NCBI GenBank assembly: GCA_001600815.1
Contig: BCKZ01000001.1
Coordinates: 1,459,389-1,523,388, forward strand
Length of the DNA: 64,000 nt
Direction: 5' to 3'
Source of the DNA: Alloascoidea hylecoeti
Taxonomy: Eukaryota
The notes beneath the pieces are model-generated. The model saw nothing but the letters and a program-made list of their open reading frames with translations. It had not been told where the DNA came from and did not search any database. Position 1 is the first letter of the stretch. Each line of letters begins with the position of its first letter. Positions 17,273-60,816 of the stretch are shown piece after piece. Both the position numbers and the translations under genes were made by a program.

Positions 17273-19082
17273 TTGTGTATATTGATAGATACGTATTAGA
17301 TGAATTTAAAAAGAAGTGCAACTTGGGCCTTTATAACTTTTATAAAGAATTTCGATGGCTTGGAGTAATTGATTGGGTATATAAACTTGCATTTTGCTTA
17401 TTAATTGTATTCCAAATAAGCGGAGTTAGCGATGTTTGATCAACCCAGCGGAATTAGCGGATATTATTGCTTCCTTGTAAATGTAGTTAGATGAATTTGT
17501 TTTTAATTTATCGTAGCATTGTTAATATCAATGTGATACAGCCAGTTACTTTAAAGTTTAAGGTGGTTTTAATTACTTAGCTAGACTGGAATAACGACAT
17601 CGGGTTCTTAGATTATTATAAGTCAAACATACAATTGCAATAAACAAATTACACAGCGAATAAATTACAAAATTAATCTCTCAAGCCTTAAGTGTCGACT
17701 TAAGTTTACATGTTTCCACCGCTAAATAAACTAATTTCATGATTTCAGAGTACATCTTTCCGTTTCATACAACATGATTATAAGCCACGTTCAAGATATT
17801 ATATTAATATGACATAGCATCTTTTGATTTCTTTCCAAGTTGCAATTGTCTCATGTGATTTTAACTATATAGGGATAATATACTAATATTTATTAATATA
17901 AATATGATCACACCAATTGGCACCTTTATTACCTTTTTTGGAGGTGTCAGTTGGTTGACGCTCTATAAATATTCAACCAAAAGGAAAAAGTGTTGAAAAT
18001 TGGTCTCAAAAGATCAAGAATGCAATCATACTATTATATGATATTCAACTTAAATAACAAGCTTCATGAGCTTGTGATGAACACAGTCAGTGAATATGCA
18101 GTTGGCGAAAACTCCGTATTACGCATCTTTTTCTTAGAAATCCAAAAATAAAAAGGGGGAACATTATGGCCAGCCATTGAATACTCTACCTGCTCTTAAA
18201 GGAGTTCATGATATTCCGTAGATGCTAGATATTATATTATAAATGATAATTTAAATCCAGTATTTAGTGTTGGCGACCATAACCCTATAAACGCCTACAA
18301 CTCTAGATATATTTTTGGATCATCAGTCAATCCAATTATTAGTTACCAGTATACTCTGAGCTTCGAGACCCCATATTTTGAAATAGACATATTTTTAGGG
18401 GTTTCTCAATTTCTACACCGTGTCTATTGATACTAGTAGTTTCCTTAAGATATTATTGAAAAAGTCAGTCCACGAAGAGATTCCATATCAGAAATACAAT
18501 TGAAAGACTACAATATTAATCAGAATCAGATCTAGAAGAGTAATGGTATAAAATCATTGCATAAATAATATATGCATTTGCAGGTCCCTTTTTATACGAG
18601 AAAATGGACAATTCAAAATAAATTGTCTGTGATGAAATAATCAGAATTGTGGAAAAGCAATATTTTCAGTAAATAATGAAAATTCGTCATTCTAAAGGCT
18701 TTAATAATAAAGATTACACGTTCGAAATCGATGAAGAAGATATCACGAAAAAATTTGAAAATGTGATCGTTTCTTCTATAACATTAACAATCTTAATAGA
18801 AACTCGAAAAAATCGCTTAGCGCTGACGATGAAAATTTAGAAGAAGGAGTTAAATTTAAACTCAGAAAGATAGTTATAATTATTAATAGAAATATGTTTT
18901 ATTTCGCACTTGTAAATCCTTTGTAAGCTATATTGTAGACTTAAGCGCTTAAGTTTAGTTCATTTCGTTTATATTATTATTCATATTGGTTTAATATTTA
19001 GGGTGTCAGGGCCATAATTAGTTCTTCCACTGTATATATTAAAGAATATATATAGCTAGGCATAGCGCATGTTTGAGAAGAA

Positions 19083-19740
19083 TTTTTTTTTTTTAACTTT
19101 TCATATATTTTCCAATTAAATTATATAACTAGAAACTATGTAAATTCTGAGGAAATCTCTACTATATATAGTGAAATCAAAACCTCTTTTTCTATTCTTC
19201 TTTCTTCTCTTCTCTTCTCTTCTCTTCTTATGAACCAAGACCACCTTAAAAGTAATTAATTTTTTTTTACTAGATTTTTTTTACTTTTTCAAGTTTTTAG
19301 ATATTAGAATCCCCCAATCAATCTCATTTAATATTTGTGGTGGTGTCCCCGCAAATCTAATATTTTTTCTTTTTGATAAAAGCCCCATTTTTTTCTATAT
19401 TGCTTTCTTTTGTATTTATAATCAATAATTTGATCCCTATTCTTTCGCTTCCTAACATCATCTTTTTTAGTATTCTTATTGTTGAGCAATCTTCAAATAG
19501 ATGTAATATGTCGTCTTTACCTTGTTGACATAAACTACAAATATCAGATTTTTGCCACCATTGTTTTGCATTTTTATTATGAGTAACATATCCCAAGCTG
19601 AGCAAATGTATCCATTGTGTCTCCTCAGGGTGTTCCTTATATATTTCTTTGATAAATCCCAACCATTGCTTCCAATTTTCATCTTTTAGTTCTGGAATTA
19701 ACTGCATCCATTTGTTCGGTTTCGATATTATTTATTTTGG
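19083..19740 (-). mobile_element. 5'-truncated L1-clade non-LTR retrotransposon relic (ORF2 C-terminal zinc knuckle, 3' UTR, poly-A)
   Basis: CSLCQQGKDDILHLFEDC = CX2C...HLF..C knuckle typical of LINE ORF2 ends; frameshifted tail RFAGTPPQILNEIDWGILISKNLKK* ending ~19281; purine-rich 3' UTR ending in an A12 run (T run 19083-19094 on +); no TSD found. Confidence 0.7.
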
Positions 19741-19788
19741 TTCCAAGGACGCTCCCGACAAAGTGGAATTCTCCAGACCCAAGAAACT

Positions 19789-19871
19789 GCCTTGCTAGCT
19801 CAATCGGTAGAGCGTGTGACTCTTAAAAAGATGTTATCACAAGGTTGGGGGTTCGAGCCCCCCGTAGGGCT
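19789..19871 (+). tRNA. tRNA-Lys(CTT) with 10-nt intron (19826-19835)
   Basis: GCCTTGCTAGCTCAATCGGTAGAGCGTGTGACTCTTA[aaaagatgtt]ATCACAAGGTTGGGGGTTCGAGCCCCCCGTAGGGCT; cloverleaf, A/B boxes, downstream T-run terminator. Confidence 0.95.
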
Positions 19872-20292
19872 TTCTTTTTTTCCAATTTTGGAGCTCTGAG
19901 TAAATGCACGTTCTTTTTCCATATTCGGATTTCCCTCCTACTGACCCGAACAGGTTGAAATAAATATTTAATATTCCGCACTTGGATTAGTAGTAAACAG
20001 CCTTTTAAAGATGAGCATATTCCGCCCGACGTAGATGCACGGAACCCACTAAAATGCAGAAAAGCCCGTGGGGTTAATTTTATTAGTCACTCGAGCAGGT
20101 ACCCGATATCGGAAGCCCCGGTTGTGCATGCTTACTGGTAACAGCTTGTAGATCGTACCCGATCCGTTCCGACAACTTAAGGACCTGGAGCAGATCCCGC
20201 CAATTGAAATTGCAAGTATAAAAGTTTGTGTTCTGTCGGATGATTCCTCCTTTTCTCATCTCCCCCATCCTTGGTTTCTTAACTATTGCACC

Positions 20293-21567
20293 ATGTATCG
20301 ATCAATTGTCTCCAGAAATACAGCTTCAACCTCCTTTTTGTTACGTGCTTTGGCTCGCCAGAACTCAACTTGGGCTAGTGTTAAATTAGGTCCCCCTGAT
20401 GCAATTCTAGGAATCACTGAAAATTTCAAAAAGGACACTTTTGAAAAGAAGATTAATCTTGGTGTTGGTGCTTATAGAGATGACCAAGGTAAGCCATACG
20501 TTCTTGCTTCTGTTAAACAGGCAGAAAAGAACATTTTAGCAAAAAATTTGGATAAGGAATATGCCGGAATTACTGGTATTCCAGCTTTTACCAAGAAAGC
20601 CGCTGAATTGGCTTATGGTGCCGAATCTACTCCTTTATTAGAAAATAGATTGGCTATAACCCAAACCATCTCTGGAACTGGTGCTTTAAGAGTTGGTGCT
20701 GAATTCTTAAGTGCTTTTTACCCAAATAAAACAATTTTATTACCAAATCCTTCTTGGGCAAACCACAATGCTGTTTTCAAAGCTGCTGGCGTTGAACCTT
20801 TGAAATATAGGTATTATGATGATAAAACAATCTCTTTAGATTTTGAAGGTTTTGTTGATGATTTAGAAAAAGCTCCAAATGGAACTGCTGTTCTATTACA
20901 TGCTTGTGCTCATAACCCAACTGGTGTTGACCCAACTCCTGAACAATGGAGAAAATTAAGTGAAGTTTTCAAAGCTAAAGGTCATTTCCCATTCTTTGAT
21001 ATGGCTTATCAAGGTTTTGCTTCCGGTGATGCTGCAAAAGATGCATATGCTGTAAGATACTTCGTTGAACAAGGTCATCAAGTTGCTTTATGCCAATCTT
21101 TTGCCAAAAATATGGGTTTATATGGTGAGAGAGTTGGCGCTTTCTCATTAGTTGCTGCATCTCCAGAAGAAAAAGCAAAGATTGAGTCTCAATTAAAGAT
21201 CATTATTAGACCTTTATATTCAAATCCTCCAATTCATGGTGCTCGTATTGCGGCTGAAATTTTAAATGATCCATCTTTAACAAAACAATGGTTAGATGAT
21301 GTTAAGGGAATGGCTGATCGTATGAATGGTGCAAGGTCTTTATTAAAACAAAATTTGGAAAAATTAGGTTCTAAAAAGAATTGGGATCATATTACAAGTC
21401 AAATTGGTATGTTTTGTTATACCGGTTTGAAACCAGAACAAGTTGATAGATTAGCAACTGAATTTAGTATCTATTTGACTAGAAATGGTAGAATTTCAAT
21501 CGCTGGAATTACCACTGGTAATGTTGAATATTTAGCTCAATCTATTCATGAAGTTACAAAAGAGTAA
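20293..21567 (+). CDS. AAT1: Mitochondrial aspartate aminotransferase
   Basis: Arg/Ser-rich presequence, [42 protein letters not shown]-Lys [13 protein letters not shown]. Confidence 0.93.
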
Positions 21568-29515: not shown

Positions 29516-29615
29516 GGGCTCAACCGGGAATTGAACCCGGGACCTCTCGCAAACTTTTACAAGTACTTAGAGTTAAATGCCCTAAGCGAGAATTATACCA
29601 CTAAACCATCGAGCC
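29516..29615 (-). tRNA. tRNA-Pro(AGG) with 28-nt intron
   Basis: GGCTCGATGGTTTAGTGGTATAATTCTCGCTTAGGG[cattt...aaagtt]TGCGAGAGGTCCCGGGTTCAATTCCCGGTTGAGCCC followed by T6. Confidence 0.93.
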
Positions 29616-29770
29616 AATTTCATGGCTGTGGAAATGTGTAATAGTACCAGTCCACCAAAATATACGAAACACCTGACATTTTATTATGTAAATTTTCATA
29701 CACCAAAATGATTGTGGACACAAACAAATATCATCCATTTAATAGTTGAATAAAATTTAATAGAATAAAG

Positions 29771-46215: not shown

Positions 46216-47724
46216 ATGCTTTCTCGCAGATTGCTTCTCAGAACAACGGGTTCCGGTCTGTTCGCTAGACCTGTGAGAACCACTTATTCTTCAATTGGTC
46301 GTTTTTTTTCAACAACCCATCATAATAATCAACAACCAAGAAAAAGGGATGGTTGGTATCCTGAAGATTTGGAACTGCCGAGTGAAAACTTAGGATTAGA
46401 TGGTAAACCTTTTTATAAAGGTCCATCAGTTGATGAACTCCAAAACCCATTCGGAAATTTCAATCCAACAACAATGACTGAAGATGTGTCTGCAGATTTT
46501 AGATTAATAAATCAAGATGTTGAACATGAATTAAATCAAGTTCAAGAATCGAAAAAAAAAATTAGACATTTTACTTTAAATTTTGGTCCACAACATCCTG
46601 CTGCTCATGGTGTTTTAAGATTAATTTTAGAATTAAAAGGTGAAGAAATTTTAAGATCAGATCCTCATGTTGGTTTATTACATCGTGGTACCGAAAAATT
46701 AATTGAATTTAGAACTTATATGCAAGCTTTACCATATTTTGATCGATTGGATTATGTTTCTATGATGACAAATGAATTGGTTTTCTGTTTAGCGACTGAG
46801 AAATTATTAAATGTTGAAGTACCAATTCGGGCTCAATATATCAGAACTTTATTTGGTGAAATCACAAGAGTGTTAAATCATTTAATGTCTGTCTTATCTC
46901 ATGCTATGGATGTCGGTGCTTTAACTCCATTTTTATGGGGGTTTGAAGAACGTGAAAAGTTAATGGAATTTTATGAACGTGTTTCTGGTGCAAGATTACA
47001 TTCTGCTTATTTTAGACCAGGTGGTGTTTCACAAGATTTACCAAATGGAATGCTAGATGATATTTATATGTGGGCAACACAGTTTGGTGATAGACTTGAT
47101 GAAACTGAAGAATTATTGACTGATAATCGTATATGGAAACAAAGAACTATTAATATTGGTGTGGTGACTGCTGAAGCTGCCTTAAATCATTCTTTATCTG
47201 GTGTTATGTTAAGAGGTTCTGGTATTCCTTTTGATATTAGAAAAAATCAACCTTATGATGCCTATGACAAAATGGATTTCGATGTACCAGTTGGTTTAAA
47301 TGGTGATTGTTATGATCGTTATCTATGTAGAATGGCTGAATTTAGACAATCTTTACGTATCATTGAACAATGTATTAATGATATGCCTTCTGGTCCTGTG
47401 AAAGTTGAAGATTATAAAATTTCTCCTCCTCCAAGAGCTGCAATGAAAGAAGATATGGAAGCTTTAATTCATCATTTCTTATTATTTACAAAAGGTTATT
47501 GTGTACCTCCTGGTGAAACTTACACCGCAATTGAAGCTCCAAAAGGTGAAATGGGTGTTTTCCTAGTATCAAATGGTACTGAGCGTCCATATAGATGTAA
47601 AATTAGAGCTCCTGGTTTTGCTCATTTAGGTGCTTTTGATCATATTGCAAGAGGAAATTACCTAGCGGATGCTGTTGCTATTATTGGTACAATGGATTTG
47701 GTCTTTGGTGAAGTTGATCGTTAA
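46216..47724 (+). CDS. NUCM: NADH:ubiquinone oxidoreductase 49 kDa subunit (NDUFS2/NUCM)
   Basis: Presequence, [49 protein letters not shown] end. Confidence 0.95.
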
Positions 47725-49281
47725 AATAACCAAAACAAAAATCTTAAAGAAATATGAAAATAAGTTTTTGTTTTTTGAATTATCTCATAATCATGAATAA
47801 CAAAAATATACATTGAATGAATTAAAAACAAAAAAACAAAAACAATTATATAACATTTATATAATCAACTTGATTAATACTCATAATATTTAAACACAAT
47901 ATGCAAAGATGTTATTCTTCACAATGTCTTGGTTTTTATATTAAAGATTAAAACTAATTGAGTTGTTTATTATATTTTAAAATTATAACATTCAAACAAA
48001 TAAGTTTATTACCATTATAATTTTACATAATTGCATATATATCATTATTAAAAACAATGAAATGAAATTTTATCTATTATATTTAGATTTAGACATTAAA
48101 ATTTATATATATATTCGCGCGAATTCATTTTATAAAACTTGTATTAATGTTGGCCACGTGTGATCATGTGACTGTTGTAAATGATATGCTATCAATCTTT
48201 TAATGAGAATATAAATACAATCGAAACATGTTTATAAATATTAACTCTCTGAGTAGAAATAGATTTAAAAATATTTATAACCTGCTAGCAACATTATAAG
48301 TCCAGAGGTTACAATTCGCCATTTATAACTTATAGCCCTATACCGGTATATCTTTAGTTTATGTCACGTATTTATTATATCCGGGTAATCTTACTGCCTA
48401 TTTAAGCCAAAAAAGTTTTTCACTTTGTTTCTTTTCCCCAATAACGAAAAATATACCTTCTATTCACTTTGTCATTTGTGTAAGAGATGGATGAACGAAG
48501 GGGAAAAGAAGTTTAGAGTAATAATCATTCTTTATTTATAGGGATTGATGGCATGGACTATCTCATACTGAATACAGATAGAATTTAATTCTGTTTTTGG
48601 TAACTAGGTCACTGCTACATTTTATTTGTGGTACATGTATTATTGTTTTAGTTGATAGTTTGATTGATTATTTAAGCTGTGTAAGCCGTGTAGAAAATTT
48701 TATAACTCTTTCTTCTAGAAATTTGCTTCTATGAGGAAAACGGTTAACGATGCATTATTTTGTAGGGCAACGATTAATCTTATTTAAAGTATCAATGTTA
48801 ATTAATTTTAATATATATGAGATAGGAAATTGTAAAGGTTGATGTTAATTTAGCTGCTCATTTGTGAGTCAAACAAAAATCATAAATTAAGTTTAATGAT
48901 TTGAATTCATAGGTTTATCTTGAATTGGATTCATCACCTCATCTTCTAATTTCTCGCTCATTCTATCAGAGAGGTTCTCCATACGGTTAGTGACGGTCAT
49001 CAACCTCCTCTCTCTAGCCACCGATTAGAAGATTATTCCTCTATCTCACACTTAGTTATGGGAAAATACCACAGAGTCAAATATCTTCAACTGTTTGGGA
49101 TAATGTTATTAAAATAAATTATTGTGGCTTTCCCAATAGATCAATTGATATGGTATTTGATGCCGTTTATTGGCATCGATAGGACAAAAAGATCGTTTTC
49201 TTGCAACGGGATTTAATAAGATTAATTGATAAGGTATAAGGTATCTTTCGTGAAATGCATATATGGTAAGTAGCGTACCAA

Positions 49282-59790: not shown

Positions 59791-60816
59791 ATGTCAAACA
59801 ATTCCGAAAAGAACAACATAAAGGATTTGGATGTGGAAACAGATCTCATCACATTAACTAGGTTTATTTTGCACGAACAATCACGAGCAGCTAAAGCCAC
59901 CGGAGAATTGACTATTTTGTTAAACTCGCTTCAATTCGCCTTTAAATTCATTGCTCATAACATTAGAAGATCAACATTGGTCAATTTAATTGGATTAGCT
60001 GGTGCTAAAAACTCAACCGGAGATGATCAAAAGAAATTGGATGTAATTGGCGATGAAATTTTCATAAATGCAATGAAGGCCTCTGGGCATGTGAAAATAC
60101 TTGTAAGTGAGGAGCAAGAAGATCTGATCGTATTTGAAGGAAACGGTAAGTATGCGGTTGTTTGTGATCCAATCGATGGCTCATCGAATCTTGATGCAGG
60201 TGTCTCTGTGGGTACAATCTTTGGTGTCTATAAGCTAGATGATTCATCTGCCGGAACAATCAGCGATGTCTTGAAGCCAGGAACTGAAATGGTCGCCGCG
60301 GGTTATACCATGTACGGTGCTTCCTCTAACTTGGTTCTTACCACCGGTAATGGGGTCAACGGTTTCACTTTGGATACAAACCTTGGTGAATTTATTTTGA
60401 CAAATCCAAAATTAAAGATACCAGAATACAAATCAATATACTCTGTCAACGAAGGAAACACTCAATACTGGTCCAAGTCCACACAGGATTTCATTAAGGG
60501 TTTGAAATTCCCTTCTGATCCTGAAGCAAAACCTTACTCAGCAAGGTACATTGGATCCATGGTTGCTGATATTCATCGAACATTGTTATATGGTGGTTTA
60601 TTTGCTTATCCTGCTGATGCCAAATCAAAGAAAGGAAAATTGAGAATCTTATATGAATGTTTTCCAATGGCTTTTTTAATGGAACAGGCAGGTGGAGGTG
60701 CTGTTGACGATGAAGGAAAGAGAATATTGGATCTCACACCAGAAGCTATCCATGATAGAAGTGGGATCTGGCTCGGTAGTAAAGGAGAGATCGATAATTT
60801 CTTAAAATCAATTTAA
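59791..60816 (+). CDS. FBP1: Fructose-1,6-bisphosphatase
   Basis: TDLITLTRF, NSTGDDQKKLDV, VSEEQE, DPIDGSSNLD, RYIGSMVADIHRTLLYGG, KLRILYECFPM. Confidence 0.96.
   Translation: MSNNSEKNNIKDLDVETDLITLTRFILHEQSRAAKATGELTILLNSLQFAFKFIAHNIRRSTLVNLIGLAGAKNSTGDDQKKLDVIGDEIFINAMKASGHVKILVSEEQEDLIVFEGNGKYAVVCDPIDGSSNLDAGVSVGTIFGVYKLDDSSAGTISDVLKPGTEMVAAGYTMYGASSNLVLTTGNGVNGFTLDTNLGEFILTNPKLKIPEYKSIYSVNEGNTQYWSKSTQDFIKGLKFPSDPEAKPYSARYIGSMVADIHRTLLYGGLFAYPADAKSKKGKLRILYECFPMAFLMEQAGGGAVDDEGKRILDLTPEAIHDRSGIWLGSKGEIDNFLKSI

Follow-up and report, generated by a model that had tools for sequence, protein, structure and literature searches.

A 5'-truncated LINE copy facing a yeast tRNA-Lys gene: a candidate case of tRNA-directed integration by a multi-copy non-LTR family

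Integration beside tRNA genes is the textbook case of retroelements that find safe havens in compact genomes. At the locus described here, a 5'-truncated non-LTR fragment on the minus strand (ORF2 C-terminus, 3'UTR and poly(A) tail) adjoins a tRNA-Lys gene on its upstream side, and the question is whether this LINE was guided to the tRNA gene or came to lie beside it in some other way. The window, by which we mean the whole 64-kb stretch of DNA that was analyzed, is AT-rich (31.6% GC) and contains two tRNA genes. The parts of the locus, together with the second tRNA gene, are as follows:

19083-19094, minus strand: poly(A) tail of the LINE (A12; T12 on the plus strand)
19095-19356, minus strand: LINE 3'UTR (262 nt)
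about 19186-19230: CT-rich simple repeat, (CTTCT)n-like, inside the LINE 3'UTR
19360-19733, minus strand: C-terminal part of LINE ORF2 (124 open codons at 19360-19731; stop codon at 19357-19359)
19734-19788, plus strand: spacer from the LINE 5' junction to tRNA +1 (55 nt, single-copy)
19789-19871, plus strand: tRNA-Lys(CTT) gene, with a 10-nt intron at 19826-19835 (ARAGORN, introns allowed)
about 19875-19881, plus strand: T-run terminator of the tRNA-Lys gene
29516-29615, minus strand: tRNA-Pro(AGG) gene, with a 28-nt intron (ARAGORN, Rfam)

The basic layout had already been proposed in a sequence-only reading of the locus, and it held up throughout: the start of tRNA-Lys(CTT) at 19789 was returned by ARAGORN with introns and agrees with the match to Rfam RF00005 (54.3 bits); the minus-strand ORF2 3' end, 3'UTR and poly-A were recovered as an open frame with a zf-RVT-like motif and an A12 run; and the statement that tRNA-Pro lacks such an insert was borne out by blastn and tblastn of the window, which show none there. 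ARAGORN in bacterial mode called the first tRNA Leu, a miscall that was set aside; the intron-allowing mode gives Lys(CTT). In both tRNA genes the intron follows position 37 (10 and 28 nt, respectively).

Contigs of three sequencing runs were aligned to positions 18600-20300: X1 and X3, which represent organism A (the host), and X2, which is a wood-decay metagenome. The depth over tRNA-Lys was 4-6x that of the flanks in the sequencing runs, and the gene is therefore taken to belong to a multi-copy tRNA family. Two contigs of X2 carry an intron-less Lys-like variant after 19826, which probably derives from another organism of that metagenome. Run X5 (insect metagenome) covered mainly the T-run and was given no weight. 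The 8-mer ATTTTGGT is found on the sense strand upstream of both tRNA genes: at 19734-19741 (+) for Lys, where it lies at -55 and starts at the LINE junction, and at 29654-29661 (minus strand) for Pro, where it lies at -46. The window contains 14 copies of it, counting both strands, so that a shared occurrence is uncommon (about 0.007 per 60 nt); the sharing was spotted post hoc, and the 8-mer may be a TATA-like upstream element.

Elsewhere, the window holds the H/ACA snoRNA snR8 at 48437-48622 (Rfam RF01248, 64.7 bits) and a nuclear gene for the 49-kDa subunit of Complex I (46216-47724; 59791-60816, with fructose-1,6-bisphosphatase). A Complex I gene of this kind speaks against a host from the Saccharomycetaceae. 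CTG is rare, accounting for 16 of the 675 Leu-family codons in 15 ORFs, and the sole CTG in a conserved region falls at residue 112 of fructose-1,6-bisphosphatase, where the best PDB match has a conserved Leu; this single codon gives a weak hint of the standard genetic code.

The LINE fragment differs in composition from the spacer beside it (28% versus 47% GC). Its frame of 124 codons carries CSLCQQGKDDILHLFEDC and a CX2C...HX4C motif (CCHC, zf-RVT-like). The best Pfam match of the frame is zf-RVT (E=4.5e-4, 21.3 bits; below the cut-off of 27.5 bits), and the same family, likewise below threshold, ranks top for three relatives (P0002, 9.3e-4; P0006, 3.5e-4; P0004, 0.047). In a protein atlas zf-RVT was named for 27 of the 30 named look-alike clusters (score 0.96), and a profile search of the PDB returned nothing relevant among solved structures. 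Assignment to the L1 clade, which the first reading made from the C-terminal motif only, is plausible. The distal 4-5 nt of the poly(A) run may be target sequence or target duplication. Relative to other copies and six related ORFs, the window copy is without 12 nt (encoding MLHH) at 19577/19578.

The protein collections contain 11 related short ORFs, which are 37-91% identical and none of which is longer than 159 aa. An exhaustive phmmer search of 1.84 billion representatives gave 13 matches, of which nine were ORFs of this family, and a word-based search added two; the other four phmmer matches (P0008, P0010, P0012 and P0013) were discarded as unrelated zinc-finger or repeat proteins. Neither a long ORF2 relative nor a reverse transcriptase (RT) or endonuclease was found among the 1.84 billion representatives or in a search of longer proteins, and these searches recovered no ORF1, endonuclease or RT domain for the family. 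At the DNA level, a 22-mer of the 3'UTR had 0 matches in the metagenome, viral and prokaryote-genome contig collections, and the LINE protein profile had no match in the viral contigs. The sole match in a metagenome contig (L001, 2572-2736; 34% identity, with an E of 3e-4 that holds among the candidates only) lies in bacterial DNA of 65% GC and was put down to chance; this contig also carries genes for tRNA-Glu and tRNA-Gln.

How many copies the host carries can be read from the contigs in a limited way: summed contig depth is not copy number, and we read it only as showing a multi-copy and 3'-biased family. The flanks were at single-copy depth (about 10 in X1, 7 in X2 and 19-23 in X3), the LINE body (19170-19739) was summed to about 13-58x the flanks in X1-X3, and the bin at 19113-19169 reached 3460 (X1), 3940 (X2) and 9843 (X3), i.e. 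about 350-540x the flanks. The last 60-90 nt (19113-19169; 19095-19185) thus stand about 10-fold above the rest of the LINE (about 130-580, 160-700 and 330-1930), an excess explained either by 5' truncation taken to an extreme or by a short non-autonomous element with the same tail as the LINE. The CT-rich stretch at 19186-19230 was skipped in the read analysis as a simple repeat. At 19084-19087, between five and eight contigs per listed position and run leave the alignment into unlike flanks (agreement about 0.5). The 5' truncation or junction points differ from copy to copy: 19733 in the window, about 19557 in the ORF P0004, and 19536, 19395 and 19127 in contigs. Multiple copies, 3' bias, variable 5' ends and unlike flanks are, in combination, characteristic of target-primed reverse transcription that stops short of the 5' end. 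In the window itself, no other copy was detected (blastn with word size 7, tblastn; 64 kb).

Some copies lie directly against each other. Head-to-tail LINE-LINE joints connect 19127 to 19081, 19395 to 19083 (4 letters between) and 19142 to 19104 (29 letters between); these abutting copies, which lie elsewhere in the host, represent stacks or nested insertions. One further LINE-LINE joint is inverted (19086/19616, on opposite strands). Other copies also show length variants of the 3'UTR, with joints that skip 93, 116 or 209 nt, and a 14-nt insertion near 19368.

The distance between LINE and tRNA gene depends on where the LINE ends. X1, X2 and X3 each contain one contig that runs past 19733 and whose LINE strand encodes ..SQKWYNKN, which is the sequence found just upstream of IILKPNKW in the relatives P0007 and P0020. 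Because contigs of longer copies continue with ORF2 sequence at this point, the 5' junction of the window copy is 19733|19734, and 19734-19788 is therefore host DNA of 55 nt. This narrows the 5' end that had been estimated from composition at about 19731-19740, and the estimate of ~50 bp to tRNA +1, with 5' ends facing, becomes 55 nt in head-to-head orientation. Contigs of all three runs bridge 19669/19687 to 19816/19817 with 0 differences; no empty-site allele was seen in X1, X2 or X3, all of which bridge the filled junction. The pentamer ATTTT occurs at both 19082-19086 and 19734-19738, a possible 5-bp target duplication that is inseparable from the tail. If it is one, the priming nick would fall between T(-51) and G(-50) of the tRNA-sense strand, 50 nt from +1.

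Whether this spacing is more than a single case depends on other copies. The sequence-only reading knew one copy only, and two more tRNA-linked copies can now be added. The first is P0004, an ORF of 159 aa on a contig of 3,915 bp and the only one of the 11 family ORFs that reaches 5' of the LINE. Residues 96-157 of P0004 are LINE and match the window protein from W59 on, which places the truncation at about 19557. Back-translation of residues 48-76 (ASPPGVEPGIFRCDHLIVGERLAIGPRGT) gives a sequence on the opposite strand that is compatible with a cloverleaf: the acceptor, anticodon and T stems pair with 0 mismatches, the T-loop reads TTCNA, and an intron of 9-12 nt is required. The order suggested by back-translation is: antisense terminator, antisense tRNA, a spacer of ~59 nt, LINE. 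Cloverleaf compatibility by itself is cheap, because one base in three is free in back-translation, and the plain compatibility test was dropped after 89 of 948 control segments also passed; a summed log-odds score for the cloverleaf was dropped as well, the real tRNA-Pro ranking only 14th. The score that was retained is the log-odds of the T-arm, which is 16.7 bits for P0004. Among 383,886 control positions in the six frames of the window, a score of at least 16 was reached only in the two real tRNAs (17.1 and 16.1), the best non-tRNA position scoring 15.3; with about 460 positions in P0004, the chance of such a T-arm is roughly 1 in 1000. Just past the 3' end of the putative tRNA, K44-K45-N46 correspond to TTYTTYTT on the opposite strand, which fits a Pol III terminator. 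The predicted tRNA is distinct from tRNA-Lys (T instead of G at position 1, another T-arm), and from its position 1 to the first LINE codon the spacer measures 59 nt (57-61; the start of the stem is ambiguous). P0004 had no match in the genome contigs, and its tRNA and spacer part, used as a query, matched only P0004 itself.

The second additional copy is seen in X1 and X3. One contig in each of these runs connects position 19536 of the LINE with 19788, the last base ahead of the tRNA. The joined pieces are collinear with the window and their depth is about single-copy (8.9 and 15.9). This joint is a third copy beside the 5' half of a tRNA, in the same orientation, with a gap that could be zero. 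The three tRNA-linked copies (3/3) are all in opposite orientation to the tRNA gene, with the LINE 5' end facing it, and both copies with a measurable spacing (55 nt; 59 nt, 57-61) are inserted within 40-64 bp upstream. The evidence base is therefore two copies for the spacing and three for the orientation.

Given these arrangements, we find it somewhat probable that the window holds a dead, 5'-truncated copy of a multi-copy LINE family whose integration is position-specific, at about 50-60 bp upstream of tRNA genes and with the LINE 5' end turned towards the tRNA. The broader proposition, that head-to-head integration at ~50-60 bp upstream of tRNA genes, guided by the Pol III complex, arose independently in a high-copy LINE family of a budding-yeast-type ascomycete, is in our judgement evenly balanced. 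As to the mechanism, TFIIIB reaches upstream to about 40-45 bp from the transcription start, and this point falls about 50-55 bp ahead of the mature 5' end. The LINE ribonucleoprotein would be recruited to the Pol III pre-initiation complex, conceivably through TFIIIB or TFIIIC, and its endonuclease would nick the tRNA-sense strand at that position, which in the window would be after ATTTT and before GGTTCC, 50 nt from +1. With the poly(A) tail as template, reverse transcription would then start from the 3'-OH of the T-run; a cDNA left incomplete would account for the 5' truncation, and a staggered second cut would create a short target duplication (ATTTT).

The explanation that competes best, although we consider it unlikely, is passive retention or chance: LINEs would insert near-randomly into AT-rich, nucleosome-free intergenic DNA, and copies would survive where they are harmless, for example on the upstream side of tRNA genes. 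Several observations are in line with it. Targets of the endonuclease type (TTTT/G) are ubiquitous, with 972 TTTT(G/A) sites on both strands of the 64-kb window; most 3' ends in X1-X3 have unlike flanks; and the tRNA-Pro(AGG) gene at 29516-29615 is without an insert, which also counts directly against homing. A further point against homing is that the 3' ends could exceed the tRNA genes of a yeast if the depth ratio of 350-540x tracks copy number, in which case some copies may lie elsewhere. The window copy was, furthermore, picked for its position beside a tRNA gene, so that only P0004 and the contig joint count as tests. Both of these speak against retention: the sole informative independent ORF (1/1, among 11) has a putative head-to-head tRNA at about 59 nt, and in the third copy the neighbour is again the 5' half of a tRNA, oriented alike. 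With two tRNA genes per 64 kb, the chance that a facing tRNA 5' end lies 45-70 nt beyond a random junction is about 4e-4. A simple L1-type nick preference, furthermore, cannot place copies at 55 and 59 nt from two tRNA genes, because sites of that type are so numerous (972), and the window has no second copy of the element.

Less probable still, in our view, is poly(A)-seeded integration of the kind known for Zorro3, in which A/T runs and the tails of earlier copies are targeted and nearness to tRNA genes follows from T-rich elements upstream of them instead of from recognition of the Pol III machinery. Truncated 5' ends that run directly into the tail of the next copy in X1-X3 argue for this explanation, as do the presence of ATTTTGGT upstream of both window tRNA genes (-55 and -46) and the integration of Zorro3 into poly(A) tracts as described in the accessible part of PMC7175516. 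The head-to-tail joints, however, fit repeated insertion at one tRNA-relative site and poly(A)-seeded stacking equally, as insertion at a fixed site would yield identical stacks. The proposal of tRNA targeting made in the sequence-only reading is partly supported by the two further head-to-head copies and the ~59-nt spacing, and is left without help from the stacking joints. Two observations weigh against seeding. The tRNA-proximal flank of the window copy consists of only A+T4, with T12 confined to the tail side, and is thus not poly(A) on both sides as in Zorro3; the target in the window being only T4-T5 rather than a long poly(A) tract favours position-specific homing. In P0004, the deduced base pattern of the spacer beside the LINE (DATRTGDAT...) permits no T-run. 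For the stacked copies elsewhere in the host, seeding may nevertheless apply. That the frame is not retrotransposon-derived at all, being the remnant of a host zinc-finger gene or another type of repeat, is very improbable: the zf-RVT match below the cut-off (21.3 versus 27.5 bits), the failure to find an RT, endonuclease or long ORF2 relative among the 1.84 billion representatives and the lack of a matching solved structure would agree with it, but the A12 tail sits exactly where the similarity of other copies ends, the family occurs in multiple copies that are 3'-biased and differ at the 5' end, and zf-RVT is the top family for three further relatives and in 27 of the 30 atlas clusters.

If integration directed to tRNA genes is true for this family, a TRE5-type strategy would be seen for the first time in a non-LTR element from beyond the dictyostelid amoebae. 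Among yeast retroelements, it would be the first that arrives at tRNA genes through target-primed reverse transcription instead of an integrase, and TRE5-like spacing in a yeast LINE would add to the examples of convergence. How a target-primed reverse transcription machine reads TFIIIB or TFIIIC could then be studied in an organism close to the best Pol III genetics and structures, and the element might offer a naturally site-directed LINE scaffold for genome engineering. If the association does not hold genome-wide, the fragment is a dead LINE copy like any other. According to the available part of PMC7175516, Zorro3 can retrotranspose in S. cerevisiae, and a marked-element assay for the present family therefore looks feasible.

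How does the family compare with known elements? In the accessible full-text literature, outside subscription journals and supplements, no description of tRNA-gene targeting by a yeast LINE was found. The earlier statement that no such targeting is known for Zorro and Ylli agrees with the accessible parts of PMC7175516, PMC3956500 and PMC5014426, which report none; for the Zorro elements as a group this refers to PMC3956500, where the text available reports no tRNA association, and the Scheffersomyces LINEs Ace, Bri and Can are likewise described without mention of a tRNA association in the part of PMC8546629 that could be consulted. In the table of tRNA-targeting elements of a 2018 review, as far as it is accessible (PMC5911963), the non-LTR entries are TRE5, TRE3, NLTR-A and NLTR-B, all from dictyostelids, and every yeast entry is an LTR element.

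The Saccharomyces elements Ty3 and Ty1 carry LTRs and have their finished cDNA inserted by an integrase, whereas the element described here has a poly(A) tail and a variable 5' truncation, which imply target-primed reverse transcription. Ty3 integrates at the transcription start and Ty1 in a window of about 750 bp-1 kb. What these elements share with ours is that they are yeast retroelements, with genes transcribed by Pol III as safe havens (PMC5911963, accessible part).

Ylli of Yarrowia lipolytica, an L1-type element, likewise has many very short 5'-truncated copies, poly(A) and target duplications that are hard to see, with 104 fragments of 30 bp-1 kb in one strain (PMC5014426, from the portion available). 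The same portion of PMC5014426 reports no tRNA association for Ylli, and the elements adjacent to tRNA genes in that genome are Ty3/gypsy LTR elements.

Among yeast LINEs, Zorro3 of Candida albicans (with Zorro1/2), an element of the L1 clade, similarly ends in poly(A) and occurs in 5'-truncated copies. Zorro copies number a handful, whereas the present family shows far more 3' ends. The head-to-tail junctions described above are compatible with a Zorro-like insertion at earlier tails. According to the accessible parts of PMC7175516 and PMC13728883, Zorro3 targets poly(A) without a known regional preference. Its copies have poly(A) on both sides (PMC7175516, same part), in contrast to the window copy, which has T4 on the proximal side and lies 55 nt from a tRNA.

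The closest parallels are TRE5-A of Dictyostelium discoideum and NLTR-B, which are likewise non-LTR elements, end in oligo(A), have a zinc finger at the C-terminus of ORF2 and are inserted upstream of tRNA genes in opposite orientation; non-LTR targeting of tRNA genes in amoebae is likewise described in the available part of PMC5006619. TRE5-A belongs to an amoeba and its targeting is documented by genome-wide data, while the present family belongs to a budding-yeast-like ascomycete and contributes two to three copies; the two are likened by arrangement and not by sequence homology. The targeting of TRE5-A furthermore rests on an interaction of ORF1 with TFIIIB, whose counterpart in the yeast family would be hypothetical. 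The accessible part of PMC5911963 states that TRE5 inserts 40-54 bp upstream in opposite orientation, with an ORF1 that binds TFIIIB, and that NLTR-B of P. pallidum inserts 39-64 bp upstream of the mature tRNA coding sequence. Set against these ranges, 40-54 bp for TRE5 and 39-64 bp for NLTR-B, the yeast copies lie head-to-head at 55 and about 59 nt.
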